DNA of 63,898 nucleotides, filler included, from Chrysochromulina tobinii (taxonomy: Eukaryota), in the NCBI GenBank assembly GCA_001275005.1. It is 5 parts of 5 records of this genome, joined end to end, with 100 filler letters (N's around TTAATTAATTAA, not from the genome) between each part and the next. Parts side by side here need not be neighbours in the genome. Positions count along the whole stretch, not along the records: positions 58,805 to 62,400 come from JWZX01000974.1; 4 more parts are not named here. One strand, 5' to 3'. The position numbers and the translations under genes were made by a program. The notes beneath the pieces are model-generated. The model had not been told where the DNA came from. It did no database searches and saw only the letters and a program-made list of their open reading frames with translations. Of the stretch, positions 16,245 through 62,500 are shown piece after piece (within the stretch, counting starts at the first letter, position 1; each line of letters begins with the position of its first letter).

Positions 16245-16344
16245 NNNNNNNNNNNNNNNNNNNNNNNNNNNNNNNNNNNNNNNNNNNNTTAATTAATTAA
16301 NNNNNNNNNNNNNNNNNNNNNNNNNNNNNNNNNNNNNNNNNNNN
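16245..16344. other. Artificial contig linker N44-TTAATTAATTAA-N44
   Basis: Six-frame stop linker flanked by Ns; repeated identically at 34632, 58705 and 62401. Confidence 0.98.
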
Positions 16345-34227: not shown

Positions 34228-34731
34228 GTTTTCTGCACACAAAAACATATTCGGGTTTCGGATGTACCGGGTACCAGTAACGAGTCTTACTCCGGAAAAA
34301 AGACCCCGAAGGGAGCCCGGGACACTCACGGGACACACACGGGACACGAGGGCGCACAAGGGCACACGGATACCGGGTTATTTGATCAACATTCTTTGTG
34401 TTTCTTTTATTTCTTGGGTCGCAGGGTCGCGCTGGCGAGACTTCTGAGACGGCCGCGGATTCGGTCGTCGCGCTGTCGCGCCATGCGTGTGTGTTGCCGA
34501 ACCCAAGTACAATGAACATCCGTGTTGGATCGCCGGGCCCCGTCTACTGCCGCTTGACCCCAACAGTTAAGCGGCCGTGAACTCAACGTGTGATGAGACT
34601 GTTGGCAGAGCTACCACAGGGGCCCAACCAGNNNNNNNNNNNNNNNNNNNNNNNNNNNNNNNNNNNNNNNNNNNNTTAATTAATTAANNNNNNNNNNNNN
34701 NNNNNNNNNNNNNNNNNNNNNNNNNNNNNNN

Positions 34732-56952: not shown

Positions 56953-58704
56953 ATGCTCTTTCGCGTCATAGGGGGGTCTCGCCTCGCGAGCTCGGCCCGC
57001 CCGCTGCTCGCGGCCCGCCCACTGCTGGCTACCCGCCCGCTCTCAACACTGCCCCCCAAGCGCAACCAATCTACGGCCATCGTCGACGACGTCGACGAGG
57101 AGGCGGAGTGGGACGCTGCCTTCTTGGAAATCGCGGACAAAGTGTACGACTCTTCGCGCAACCACCAGGACTCGGCCGCCGGGCTGCGGCAGCTGATCAA
57201 GAGCGGCCTACTCAAGCACACCGATCTCCGCGACCGTCCGGACCGCTTCTTCCGTGCCCACCGCCTCCTCGGCCGCTACGCGGTCGACCACGGCCCCGGC
57301 TTTTGGATCCGATTCACCGTGCACTACAATCTGTGCTTCGGCACCGTGCTGGCCGTGGGCGGGCCCGAGCAAGTCGACAGCATGGCGCGCGTGCAGGAGG
57401 ACGGCCTCCTCGGCTGCTTTGCGCTCACCGAAAAGCTCGCGGGCGTCCAGTCGGGCCTGATCGTGCAGACGCGCGCCGAGTACGACAGCAAGACCGACAC
57501 GTTCGTGCTCAACAACACGGGCAAGACGACCGGCGCGTACAAGAACTGGATCTCGCAGGGCTTCGTCGCCGACAAGGCCTGCGTGGTCGCCGATCTCACC
57601 GTCGGTGGCGAGCGCAAGGGGCCGCACGCCTTCCTGATGGACCTGCGCCGCAACGGCCAGCTCGTCGAGGGTGTCTCCGTCGGCGACATGGGCATCAAGA
57701 CGACCGGCAACGACCTCGACAACGCCTGGATCGCGCTCGACAACGTGCACGTGCCGCGCACTGCCTTGCTCAACCGGTACGCCGCGGTGGGCGCGGATGG
57801 TGCGTACAAGCAGGCGTCGGCCGACATCAAGCCGTTCGAGATGATCGGCCAAAGACTGTACACGGGTCGCGTGGCGGTGGCCCAAGCGGCCCTCTCATAC
57901 CGTCGGCGCCTCTTCGAGAAGACGAAGGCGTACGCGGACGCGAAGCCGATCCCCGCCTTCGGGCGCGGCACGGCCACCCTCTCGTCCATTCCACAGCTCA
58001 GGGCTCTCTTCGCCGAAGCGGAGGTGACAGCGGCGGCCCTCGAGGAGTATCTGAAGATCTCTGATTGCATCTGATGACATCTGATTGCCTCCCTCATCAG
58101 GTGACCGCGGCAGCCCTCGAGGAGTATCTGAAGATCTCTGATTGCATCTGATGACATCTGATTGCCTCCCTCATCAGGTGACCGCGGCGGCCCTCGAGGA
58201 GTATCTGAAGATCTCTGATTGCATCTGATAACATGACATCTGATTGCCTCCCTCATCAGGTGACCGCGGCGGCCCTCGAGGAGTATCTGAAGATCTCTGA
58301 TTGCATCTGATGACATCTGATTGCCTCCCTCATCAAGGTGATGGCCCTCGAGGGCGAGCAGCTGCTGCCGGCGCTCCTCGCGCAAGTCGAGGCCACGCTC
58401 ACAGAGTGCGCGCGTGCCAAGGGGCTGACGCTACGCCCCCGTCGCGCCGCCGCGGGCACCAACGACAGCGGCACATCCGACAGCGGAATCGCCGTATCGA
58501 GCGCCGTTTCGAGCGCCGTTTCGAGCGCCGTGCGCGCCGTCGTGGTGAGCGCAATTGCCAATGTGCTCAACCACGCCTTCCGACGCCACGTGGCGAGCGT
58601 TACGTGGAGCGCGGGCGGATTCGATCGCTTCAGAGACTCGAGTGGGGGCGGCAATGGGGGCGCGGTGGTGGCAAGGGCGGCAAGGGCGGCAAGGGCGGCG
58701 GCGG
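56953..58704 (+). CDS. Acyl-CoA oxidase/dehydrogenase-family flavoprotein; intron array 58024-58337; 3' part uncertain and truncated by gap
   Basis: RFTVHYNLCFGTV, GCFALTEKLAGV, AYKNWISQG, GPHAFLM, DMGIKTTGNDLDNAWI, LYTGRVAVAQ. Confidence 0.8.
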
Positions 58705-58978
58705 NNNNNNNNNNNNNNNNNNNNNNNNNNNNNNNNNNNNNNNNNNNNTTAATTAATTAANNNNNNNNNNNNNNNNNNNNNNNNNNNNNNNNNNNNNNNN
58801 NNNNTCACACCTACCGGTAGCCCCTGCGATGAACGGTAGCGGCGCGCGACTGAAGGCAGCGCCCGAGCGTGCCGATGAGGATGGTGCACGTCAGTCTCCG
58901 CTGTCTTCGTCAGTCGTCTCGGCGCTATTCATAACACATCGTAAGCGCTTGAGTCGAAAACTTCGAGTGAGGGCCGGC

Positions 58979-59117
58979 GTGAGTGAGTGAGTGAGTGAGT
59001 TATTGAGAAACAGACACACCGTGGGACAACTCGGACAACTCACTCACTCACTCACTCACTCACTCACTCCGACCGTCAGGCGTCACTCACTCCACCGCTC
59101 ACTCACTCACTCACAGC
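58979..59117. mobile_element. MITE-like insertion with (GAGT)n/(ACTC)n inverted arms and 10-bp direct flank GAGGGCCGGC
   Basis: Direct repeats at 58969-58978 and 59118-59127; element absent from the paralogous site near 60190. Confidence 0.55.
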
Positions 59118-59341
59118 GAGGGCCGGCCGCCTGTGGGCGCGGTAGCCATTTCTAAGTTGTGGAGAGCCAAAAGCTGACAAACACATTCTGTGCACCGGAG
59201 CGTTACGTTACCTAATTTGTTTACTTGTATTCGAAGTTCGTCGTACACCCGATCTCCCGATGACAGTGTACACCCGATGGCAGTACACCCGAAGACAGTG
59301 TAAATAACCGACGCTTGTGCATGGAAAGCCGTGGGCAGCTT

Positions 59342-59412
59342 GGCACAAACTCCCTCAGCCAGCAGTCACCACCTTTCGGCGCTGTGCTGCTGCTCGCGTC
59401 ATCGTGTGTGCC
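59342..59412 (-). promoter_or_regulatory. Weakened SECIS-like hairpin in 3' UTR of the Cys paralog
   Basis: GGCACACACG-AUGAC-GCGAGCAGCAGC-ACAG-CGCCGAAAGGUG-GUGACUGCUGGC-UGAG-GGAGUUUGUGCC; two extra helix II mismatches relative to copy 2. Confidence 0.5.
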
Positions 59413-59523: not shown

Positions 59524-59736
59524 CTATGAAATGTCGCACTGCTGAGCCTGATTTGAAGCGGCTCCAGCCTGCGCTTCGGTGGTCTCACCCTCGGCCAGCT
59601 TGTGCGAGCCCGCGCCAGTCTTCCACGCGGGGCACCGATTCTCCTCGGGAATGCCTCTGAGTGCCGACGCAACGTGTTGACCACACCCAGTCCAGGTCGG
59701 AAGCTTGCACACGACACAGGTCGTCTTGAAGCACAT
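59524..59736 (-). CDS. 70-aa Cys/His mini-protein (MCxxxxCxxCxxxTWxGCGxH...RC) with C-terminal CDIS (CaaX-like); Cys paralog
   Basis: MCFKTTCVVCKLPTWTGCGQHVASALRGIPEENRCP...QQCDIS*. Confidence 0.8.
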   Translation of the reverse strand: MCFKTTCVVCKLPTWTGCGQHVASALRGIPEENRCPAWKTGAGSHKLAEGETTEAQAGAASNQAQQCDIS

Positions 59737-60563
59737 CTTGCTCCTGAATGCGCTTCTGGCGGCGGCCGGAAGGACACCGAGTTGCTCGCCGGGTTTAGCC
59801 GCCGAGGATGGGAGAATGCGAGCTTGTACCGGTTCGAGCATGAAACGTCAAGTCAAGTCAAGTCATACCCGCCCTCTCCCTTCCCACCACAGCGGCTGCC
59901 GCTTGGGACAGACCGGTCAACACGTAAACGCAGGCAGACAAACACACTCAAGCTCACGCTTTCACGCCCCCCACTCCGTCGCCGCCGCCGCCGCCACGCG
60001 CGCGCGCGCGCGACGCGAAGTCCCGGTAGTTTGCTGCGTTGCGGCTTCACACCTACCGGTAGCCCCTGCGATGAACGGTAGCGGCGCGCGACTGAAGGCA
60101 GCGCCCGAGCGTGCATGAGGATGGTGCACGTCCATGAGACCATGTGCACGTTTTTAGTGCACGTCTGGCGCTAATTATAAACTTCGAGTGAGGTCGCGGT
60201 TGCCAATTCTAAGTTGTGGAGAGCCAAAATCTGACAAACACTTTCACTTTTTACTGTGCACGAGTGTACACTATTTTTCATGTTTATAGGCTTGTTATAA
60301 GCAATAAGGCCCCGGACCCTACACCTGTTTGGGAATTGAATGGTCCATACAATGGTTGACCCAAGGTAGAGTGGTCTACTATTTTTCATGTGCATAAGGC
60401 CCCCACCCTATACCTGTTTGGGAATTGAATGATTAGTACTTCTACTTGCGACTCGTTCGTCGTCCGTACACAGAACACCCGATGACAGTGTACACCCGAT
60501 GGCAGTACACCCGATGACAGTGTAAATAACCGACGCTTGTGCATGGAAAGCCGTGGGCAGCTT

Positions 60564-60634
60564 GGCACAAACTCCCTCAGCCAGCAGTCACCGCCTCTCG
60601 GCGCTGTGCAACTGCTCGCGTCATCGTGTGTGCC
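60564..60634 (-). promoter_or_regulatory. Candidate type II SECIS element
   Basis: Helix I GGCACA/UGUGCC; AUGAC...UGAG core; 12-bp helix II with one mismatch; apical ACAG bulge plus CGCC-GAGA-GGCG mini-stem; about 105 nt after the stop codon. Confidence 0.6.
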
Positions 60635-60739
60635 GTGCGTGCTCGAGAATGTCGACGGAACCACGGCGAGGACGGTCGTGCAGAACGGCCGTGCGGGACG
60701 GTCTGCAGGTGCACGGTCGTGCAGGACGGTTGCGCCACT

Positions 60740-60961
60740 CTATGAAATGTCGCACTGCTGAGCCTGCTTTGAAGCGGCTGCAGCCTGCGCTTCGGTAGGT
60801 GTCCAGGTCTCCCCCTCGGCTAGCTTGTGAGAGCCCGCTCCTGTCTTCCACATGGGGCACCGATTCTCCTCGGGGATGCCTTTGAGTGCCGACGCAACGT
60901 GTTGACCTCACCCAGACCAGGTCGGAAGCTTGCACACGCCACAGGTCGTCTTGAAGCACAT
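60740..60961 (-). CDS. 73-aa paralog with in-frame TGA (codon 18, 60908-60910) at the conserved Cys; candidate selenoprotein
   Basis: MCFKTTCGVCKLPTWSG(TGA)GQHVASALKGIPEENRCPMWKTGAGSHKLAEGETWTPTEAQAAAASKQAQQCDIS*; frame intact after the TGA and SECIS-like hairpin downstream. Confidence 0.65.
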
Positions 60962-61155
60962 CTTGCTCCTGAATGCGGGGGCCGAAAGGTGACCGTGTTG
61001 AACCGCCGGGGTTAGCCGCCGAGATTGCGAGAAAGCGAGCATGGAACGTAAACCGTCAAGACAGTACATGTAATCTCCCTCCCGTGCGACGCACGCACGC
61101 ATGCCGTCACTGTGCTGCCGGCGGGGCTCCCCCCGTGTCATTTTACCGGTACGAC

Positions 61156-61215
61156 TGTCCCGGCTCCCCCCGGTGTCTTTTTACCGGTAAAAAGACACCG
61201 GGGGGAGCCGGGACA
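61156..61215. repeat. Perfect 60-bp palindrome centred on ACCGGT
   Basis: tgtcccggctccccccggtgtctttttacc|ggtaaaaagacaccggggggagccgggaca. Confidence 0.95.
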
Positions 61216-62400: not shown

Positions 62401-62500
62401 NNNNNNNNNNNNNNNNNNNNNNNNNNNNNNNNNNNNNNNNNNNNTTAATTAATTAANNNNNNNNNNNNNNNNNNNNNNNNNNNNNNNNNNNNNNNNNNNN

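Follow-up and report, generated by a model that had tools for sequence, protein, structure and literature searches.

The window, as the whole DNA stretch analysed here is called, comprises 63,898 nucleotides from the haptophyte Chrysochromulina tobinii (assembly GCA_001275005.1). Two tandem paralogous genes for a small Cys/His-rich protein, copies A and B, lie on the minus strand of its contig piece 58805-62400. Copy A has an in-frame TGA at codon 18, at which it very probably encodes selenocysteine (Sec), a prediction drawn from sequence comparison, and each copy is followed by a hairpin resembling a Sec insertion sequence (SECIS). The selenoproteomes of haptophytes are large, and a need for selenium is known from several Chrysochromulina species, as stated in section 5 of PMC7539508 and in the part of PMC6254913 used here. 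The features of the two genes are as follows.

60740..60961, minus strand: coding sequence of copy A, with 73 codons of which the 18th is TGA; an MCxxxxCxxCxKxTWxG-U-GxH...RC domain, then a low-complexity linker and a CDIS tail; predicted selenoprotein
60908..60910, minus strand: in-frame TGA, codon 18, at the site of the family's invariant GCG cysteine; likely Sec
60743..60754, minus strand: C-terminal CDIS of copy A, CaaX-like; prenylation only putative
60564..60634, minus strand: SECIS-like hairpin A, with helix I, an AUGAC/UGAG core, helix II, ACAG and a mini-stem
59524..59736, minus strand: coding sequence of copy B, with 70 codons of which the 18th is the Cys codon TGT (59683-59685); it probably descends from a Sec copy
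59342..59412, minus strand: SECIS-like hairpin B, 3' of the Cys gene and weakened to 9 pairs in helix II; it is probably a relic

Results

An earlier reading of this DNA, made from the sequence alone (the sequence-only reading), had claimed that the paralogues differ by TGT (59683-85) versus TGA (60908-10) at codon 18 and that the frame behind it is intact. Both codons were reproduced in the two open reading frames (ORFs), and a recount agreed on the 9-nt in-frame indel, the 6 synonymous and 4 non-synonymous codon differences behind codon 18 and the CDIS-stop with which both copies end; ahead of codon 18 there are 2 further non-synonymous differences. In-frame ATGs farther upstream (61141 for A; around 59841 for B) were not accepted as starts, since MC is where the homologues begin and the RNA contigs stop around 60969-60989.

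The TGA was confirmed in independent DNA and RNA contigs. The RNA contigs came from four runs of four studies and were counted as spanning the codon if they extended more than 31 letters to each side. Two contigs (X16 record 16 and X18 record 20) cross the TGA under this rule with 0 differences, a third (X17 record 18) crosses it and has no listed difference in the codon itself, and X14 record 8 has 0 differences over it with only 29 letters on one side. The codon is unspliced in these contigs, no joint being listed near it. The TGT copy was seen in runs X14 and X16. The TGA is also present in strains 95-96% identical to the window (L067, L091 and L126); L016, L029 and L060, identical to it over 2045 nt, were left out as non-independent. 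A read error is thus ruled out by RNA contigs of independent studies and by these strains. The transcript does not appear to end before the hairpin, a possibility that the sequence-only reading had raised against itself: hairpin A is covered by an RNA contig (X17 record 17), and one X16 contig has a poly(A)-like loose end at 59219, 123 nt beyond hairpin B. The intergenic stretch 59789-60285 has zero cover in all four RNA runs, which is only a weak hint that the contigs derive from RNA.

A phmmer search gave 317 representatives of the family (E up to 0.001), with the motif M-C-x4-C-x2-C-x-K-x-T-W-x-G-C-G-x-H-x13-C. Seven Cys/His positions are near-invariant and 133 of 138 proteins have an extra Cys or His at most 11 residues past C35. 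Named members come from oomycetes, chytrids, a choanoflagellate, a rotifer, a green alga, a haptophyte, a diatom and bacteria, and all are annotated as "hypothetical protein". Site 18 is Cys in 249 of 250 homologous proteins; the sole exception has Trp and the same downstream peptide as one of the TGA loci described below (L131).

Metagenome, genome and viral collections were scanned for the family motif with TGA, of the three stop codons, at codon 18; the metagenome scan covered 44 of 64 parts. A hidden Markov model (HMM) of the Cys homologues was used as a filter at a score of at least 30. It dropped 167 of the 205 pattern hits as chance matches and passed 38 loci (37 of 121 metagenome, 1 of 73 genome and 0 of 11 viral hits), L090 being a borderline pass at 34 bits. 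The 38 loci represent 25 distinct cores and 18 clusters at 80% identity, and the 17 clusters outside the window's own are 38-61% identical to copy A. TGA at this codon is therefore not unique to the window copy with all orthologues Cys, the outcome that was to have told against a selenoprotein.

The peptide behind the TGA is conserved. Among 17 full-length cluster representatives C35 is kept in 17 and R34 in 16, and H21 in 17 of 17, though H21 belonged to the scan pattern. In seven close pairs synonymous differences behind the TGA outnumber non-synonymous ones in four, equal them in one and are fewer in one, which is not counted as support; the most distant pair has 5:3. The other Cys codons of 23 distinct ORFs are TGY in 122 cases and TGA in 1, and Trp is TGG in all 48, so TGA is no general Cys or Trp codon here. 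Five of the TGA loci end in TGA. One locus, L054:983-1255, has two in-frame TGAs, the second within its CxxC (giving CxxU and GUG), followed by a C-terminal DUF1059-like domain (E 0.001) and then a canonical SECIS.

L014, L099 and L132 contain GT-AG introns whose removal brings the sequence behind the TGA back into frame, and L028 probably has an intron as well; the first three are therefore eukaryotic genes. By introns, hairpins or tree neighbours 16 of the 18 clusters are likely to be eukaryote-like, an assignment that is indirect for several of them. A 46-column tree has the Sec forms dispersed among the Cys forms and is too weak to order gains and losses. The family gene was present in 40 of 401 sampled Actinomycetota genomes (about 10%), and 30 of the 31 bacterial loci inspected have Cys; the TGA pattern occurred in one of 185,579 genomes. 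The TGA of Galactobacter (L141) was rejected as Sec and taken as chance nonsense, as neither SelA nor a tRNA-Sec was found over the cut-off in that organism. Three other TGAs flagged in bacterial matches were ordinary stops where checked. A further bacterial-looking locus with TGA at codon 18, L022:890-1063, lies between a glycosyltransferase and an aspartyl protease gene and has no clear hairpin; its TGA may be either Sec or nonsense.

Helix I of hairpin A (60634-60629 paired with 60569-60564) starts 105 nt past the stop codon, and the AUGA core (60624), from which it is separated by an internal loop, lies 115 nt past the stop and 284 nt past the UGA. Of the SECIS core features, hairpin A has the 5' AUGA and the 3' GA that closes helix II. 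The 12 positions of helix II are 11 standard pairs and one G.G mismatch. The apex has the type II shape, with an unpaired ACAG, a 4-bp mini-stem and a GAGA loop, and the 13 nt from AUGA to the unpaired stretch are matched in L054 and L118. The place of the hairpin, its AUGA...GA core, mini-stem and GAGA loop are as first described; the helix II of 12 bp is not. The caveat made at that time, an apical ACAG rather than AA, applies to both window copies, and the hairpin behind the Cys copy had gone unmentioned. Hairpin B differs from A at four positions, three of them weakening: pairs of helix II are lost through two changes, a G-C of the mini-stem has become G.U through a third, and the fourth is neutral in the GNRA loop.

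Hairpin A folds with z = -2.8, and 3 of 200 shuffles were equally good. Its antisense strand gave z = -3.1, so folding alone is not strand-specific. A core-constrained ranking over both strands of the window placed hairpin A first and hairpin B third of 289 SECIS-shaped candidates, and by helix II pair count hairpin A is in the top 4 of 909 RUGA sites.

A SECIS profile search, suggested at the outset as a check, did not detect the hairpin. Rfam gave no SECIS family for the window region at E up to 10, or for 20 relatives at E up to 5; this null is uninformative because canonical relatives were missed too. A covariance model, R1, was built from 12 relatives on MAFFT alignment A3, in which 5 of the 12 rows are visibly out of register. 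R1 recovered its own training set and detected neither window hairpin in a window-wide search; in a local search hairpin A was the top match, with only 7.9 bits and E 0.36. Pair counts on alignment A5 exceeded all 500 shuffles and were not used as support because A5 was fitted to R1 and holds 2 chance rows. The MAFFT alignments A2 and A4 were too poor and were set aside.

The 3' regions of relatives were examined with a scanner for RUGA, a constrained helix II, GA and helix I. Its thresholds were chosen after the sequences had been seen, and with them 11 of 20 regions passed, namely both window copies and 9 of 18 loci; by cluster, 6 of 11 eukaryote-like ones passed and neither bacterial one did. 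None of the 20 antisense and none of the 15 upstream controls passed, and among 133 non-family regions 4 did. Canonical AUGA..AA..GA elements are visible in L036, L041, L061, L062, L127, L054 and L014. The apical AA is missing in L085, L038, L088 and L118, yet L085 and L038, the nearest TGA relatives of the window, have a 12-pair helix II. The expectation that the hairpin would covary in relatives was borne out as far as SECIS-shaped hairpins of varying sequence occur in several of them.

Sec and Cys can change places between the two copies. In L091 and L092, which lie on one contig, both tandem copies have TGA, L092 being the B-position copy, and among database proteins each copy type has Cys versions, whose features are mixed. 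The decay of hairpin B, the TGA at the B position and these Cys alleles point to an ancestral Sec gene, a change of TGA to TGT in some copies and exchange between copies. Copy B has, on this comparison, likely lost Sec recently by such a change. Sec and Cys alleles are likely to coexist in wild populations of the alga, and their presence at both tandem positions in different strains suggests a standing polymorphism with exchange between copies. In the TGA allele L092/X17 a short inverted-repeat insertion just 5' of the stop (L092:1190-1240, oriented coordinates) swaps the CDIS tail for a longer basic tail. Section 10 of PMC7539508, the part drawn on here, describes Sec-to-Cys conversion after duplication in the cases of a Fragilariopsis GRX pair and Symbiodinium PRX, with near-alike adjacent Sec and Cys copies and a SECIS-like element behind a Cys gene as the features in common with the window; unlike those cases, the present pair has Sec or Cys at either tandem position according to strain.

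Sequence searches of Pfam, NCBIfam and the PDB with the family gave no match, and 104 of 106 members were without any Pfam family, none being shared. An AlphaFold model has a pLDDT of about 90 over residues 1-40, with strands 3-6 and 13-16 and a helix at 22-25. Fold searches gave a best E of 5.4 with Foldseek and no VIA-align match at Z of at least 2; the ESM Atlas returned unnamed clusters only, with no structure. Treble-clef and zinc-ribbon fingers have a CxxC knuckle at a beta-hairpin, a Cys-x-x-His at the start of a helix and C-terminal ligands. The family resembles small zinc-finger domains in its CxxC knuckle, its Cys-x-x-His at the helix start and its further C-terminal ligands, and is unlike them in sharing no Pfam family and having no Foldseek or VIA-align match. 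The TGA members L088, L051, L131, L105, L112, L098 and L085 have one more Cys/His motif at the C-terminus, of the form CxxC...H or, in L085/L038, a finger with four Cys, and the protein P0308 is a close Cys-type counterpart of L088.

The CaaX-like tail, part of the sequence-only reading, is common in the family: Cys stands at -4 in 20 of 144 Cys representatives, versus 3-8 for the remaining terminal positions; of 23 complete TGA-type proteins, 10 have it there. It occurs in both window copies and is lost in the TGA allele L092/X17. An acidic a1 residue is atypical of CaaX. A basic-aromatic tail of the GFLxRLFG type is found in 22 of 31 bacterial proteins, and we take it to resemble the membrane-targeting helix of MinD.

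The surroundings of the gene in bacteria were inspected at 31 of 43 bacterial matches, L141 included, over 102 neighbouring ORFs (at most the 4 nearest per locus). A TauE or rhodanese-domain gene is among the four nearest ORFs at 12 of the 31 actinobacterial loci, a count inflated by kinship, two of the 12 being 92% alike, against 0.8-0.9 expected from the domain density in five genomes. Neighbours at the 12 loci include metallo-beta-lactamase (MBL)-rhodanese fusions, fusions of pyridine-nucleotide-disulphide reductase with rhodanese, and rhodanese-YgaP; at 8 of the 12 they are on the same strand as the family gene. A CsoR-family repressor occurs at one locus and thioredoxin at four. No metal ATPase or metal efflux gene was found among the 102 neighbours scanned. 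These bacterial operons with TauE and rhodanese suggest that the family handles sulfane sulfur. Across L206-L243 the bacterial Cys form is a small gene, probably unannotated or "hypothetical", that recurs in Actinomycetota persulfide-dioxygenase/TauE/rhodanese clusters. The staphylococcal cst operon is related to the actinobacterial sulfane-sulfur clusters. In the part of PMC7533328 considered here, Streptomyces clusters of the TauE/rhodanese type oxidise sulfane sulfur; the bacterial Cys homologues adjoin genes like those of its PDO-rhodanese/TauE/rhodanese/CsoR-like clusters, but the latter have four genes and no small Cys-rich protein is described there.

Other features of the window were recorded. 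An 88-bp segment of 98% identity lies 3' of each copy (60047-60132 and 58805-58892) and marks a tandem duplication unit of roughly 1.2 kb; a third unit could lie past the contig end. A perfect 60-bp palindrome (61156-61215), about 200 nt 5' of copy A, has partial copies at 61125-61151 and 34292-34332. It matches several miRNA models under their cut-offs, and also many RNA contigs, and is likely a MITE-like repeat. A GAGT/ACTC microsatellite inverted repeat at 58965-59080, 3' of copy B, folds into a long hairpin. At 56953-58700 there is an acyl-CoA oxidase-like gene whose 3' part is broken by several copies of an ~80-bp repeat, which may be repeated introns or may result from misassembly. The best named match of a nearby gene is from Prymnesium parvum (63%), and the stretch is present in lake and freshwater sequencing runs, which makes a freshwater haptophyte the likely host. 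N spacers with a TTAATTAATTAA core stand at 16245-16344, 34632-34731, 58705-58804 and 62401-62500; the window is made of separate contigs joined end to end, so gene order across the spacers is meaningless.

Discussion

The best explanation is that copy A likely encodes a 73-residue selenoprotein of an apparently uncatalogued family: a zinc-bound, likely membrane-tethered mini-domain whose exposed Sec/Cys-18 would most likely take up or carry sulfane sulfur. All of this is predicted, with a probability of roughly 0.8. That a Sec member of the MC..CxxC..TWxGCGxH family lies here, as the sequence-only reading had it, is supported by the independent TGA data, the 17 other clusters, the hairpins and the RNA cover. 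Sequence conservation indicates that the family is almost certainly a selenoprotein family.

The proposed mechanism has four steps. SBP2 and eEFSec would bind the hairpin and insert Sec at UGA-18, which is predicted with high confidence for this copy and with near certainty for the family. C2, C7, C10, H21, C35 and one further Cys/His would probably hold zinc, with the beta-hairpin packed against the short helix; the G-U-G loop, where that helix begins, would be the reactive site. The domain would then be tethered to the membrane, by the CaaX-like tail in eukaryotes and by an amphipathic GFLxRLFG-type tail in bacteria, a step that is slightly favoured. Finally the reactive residue, with Sec as the faster nucleophile, might take up persulfide or polysulfide sulfur for a rhodanese, a persulfide dioxygenase or a CoA-persulfide reductase; this last step is tentative.

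Several points count against this reading. In the parts of PMC3753652 and PMC2761289 used here the canonical SECIS features include an apical AA/CC and a KGAW quartet. Hairpin A lacks the apical AA/CC, having ACAG as does its counterpart, and its 3' quartet is UGAG, with G at the W of KGAW, as in 6 other relatives. The element is filed as SECIS-like and non-canonical because the unpaired apical AA(R)/CC is absent. The profile searches described above missed it; L079 and L026 are without a SECIS candidate and L044 and L051 have weak ones, several untranslated regions (UTRs) being short in the data. The TGA and the complete hairpin are not joined in any one RNA contig, and DNA can be present in RNA libraries. 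Two TGA clusters, the Galactobacter locus L141 and L022, look bacterial, and with no Sec machinery found for L141 they show that chance nonsense at codon 18 occurs. Sec is evidently dispensable because many close alleles carry Cys. As to function, 19 of the 31 bacterial loci are without TauE or rhodanese neighbours, and the functional link comes from bacteria only.

Copy A might instead be a recent nonsense allele or pseudogene of a Cys gene with a relic or chance hairpin, even if the distant relatives are genuine: Cys alleles of both copy types are common, the non-canonical hairpin goes undetected by profiles and stands behind the Cys copy too, and a bacterium without Sec machinery has TGA at the same codon. 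This is improbable, however. The TGA is common to the 95-96% identical strains and to both tandem copies in L091/L092, and is in RNA contigs of four studies. Helix II has 11-12 pairs behind the TGA copy versus 9 behind the Cys copy, and L085/L038, which also lack the AA, keep all 12. Bacteria gave that one TGA in all the genomes scanned, though about a tenth of the sampled Actinomycetota have the gene, while eukaryote-like loci make up 36 of 37. It would be more remote still for the TGA to be untranslated, as part of a GTGAG splice donor, or to be read as Cys or Trp by a changed code. The window codon does lie within GG-GTGAG-G, a donor-like word present in 6 of 25 distinct loci, and one database protein has Trp at site 18. 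Both readings were rejected: no GT precedes the GA in 19 of the 25 loci, the RNA contigs are continuous with no joint, TGA stands for 1 of 123 other Cys and for none of 48 Trp, and it serves as the stop codon of 5 loci.

With Sec in place its role may still be another one. The protein could bind or sense a metal (Zn, Cu, Hg, Cd) or carry out ordinary thiol-disulfide redox chemistry at the membrane; Sec would then coordinate the metal or form a C2-U18 selenenylsulfide, and sulfane sulfur would not be handled. The near-invariant Cys/His residues, with more of them past C35 in nearly all proteins, would suit such a role, as would the modelled strands 3-6 and 13-16, which appear to bring C2 close to residue 18. 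Fusion to other small metal-binding domains (the DUF1059-like one in L054), the thioredoxin and CsoR-family neighbours in bacteria and the loci without sulfur genes also favour it. The enriched neighbours, however, are TauE, MBL-rhodanese and pyridine-nucleotide-disulphide reductase-rhodanese rather than metal ATPases or efflux genes. By analogy with the bacterial clusters a persulfide or sulfane-sulfur role for the family is a tentative assignment, and metal binding or general redox chemistry is about equally probable.

The sequence-only reading did not recognise the protein as a catalogued selenoprotein family, and none of the lists compared contains it. No homology was found to the families of Lobanov 2007 (PMC2375036), to the named families of Jiang 2020 (PMC7539508) or to Table 4 of PMC7435645, in the parts of these sources compared, the named families having other folds; Jiang's "Hypo" family and the Aureococcus list were outside the comparison. 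Literature searches found no description of the family. It is unlikely that the selenoprotein is real and already among the "hypothetical" ones of Aureococcus, Emiliania or Micromonas. The "Hypo" family, known here by name and not by sequence, and the entry "other hypothetical proteins" with which Table 4 of PMC7435645 closes leave some room for this; against it, hypothetical proteins 1-3 of Ostreococcus (PMC2375036, as far as seen) are unrelated by inspection, all named homologues are "hypothetical protein" and the literature searched held no match to the motif. With the same limits of comparison, it can be said with good confidence that the family is unlisted among known selenoproteins.

The recoding mechanism itself is of a known kind, and what is new is the protein family and, likely, an AA-less SECIS. 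As in eukaryotic genes with type II SECIS elements, among them the algal families in the parts of PMC2375036 and PMC7539508 considered, a UGA is aligned to the Cys of homologues and an AUGA/GA stem-loop with helix II and mini-stem follows in the 3' UTR; as in those algal families, Sec and Cys forms are scattered over aquatic protists. Unlike them, the present family has no thioredoxin-type CxxU and no sequence relation to the listed families, its Sec lying in the W-x-G-U-G-x-H of a 40-residue Cys/His domain, and the window hairpin has ACAG where AA stands in the type II elements of listed genes.

Conclusions

To our knowledge, a new selenoprotein family is a rare find in eukaryotes, and almost all of those described so far are oxidoreductases, with a thioredoxin fold or another. 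The family described here is a Cys/His domain of 50-70 residues without a family model or solved relative, and it has escaped notice because gene prediction either ends at the UGA or begins behind it. Sec is predicted in at least 16 eukaryote-like clusters, with Cys in oomycetes, chytrids, a choanoflagellate, a rotifer, a green alga and about 10% of sampled Actinomycetota, which allows direct Sec/Cys comparison. The bacterial context gives a first testable function, sulfane-sulfur handling, for the whole family. The window also appears to show a Sec-to-Cys change under way between its two copies. Its AA-less SECIS-like hairpin A, which is likely functional, would reveal what present SECIS predictors overlook in haptophytes.

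More speculatively, and doubtful as a whole, the family could be widespread among eukaryotes as an unlisted group of selenoproteins whose fold PDB searches do not contain. It would be a zinc mini-domain tethered to membranes, with Sec as a sulfane-sulfur carrier or sensor, and the counterpart in algae and protists of an overlooked component of bacterial operons for persulfide detoxification. Sec and Cys alleles would then segregate between tandem copies in wild freshwater haptophytes, possibly as a hedge against low selenium.

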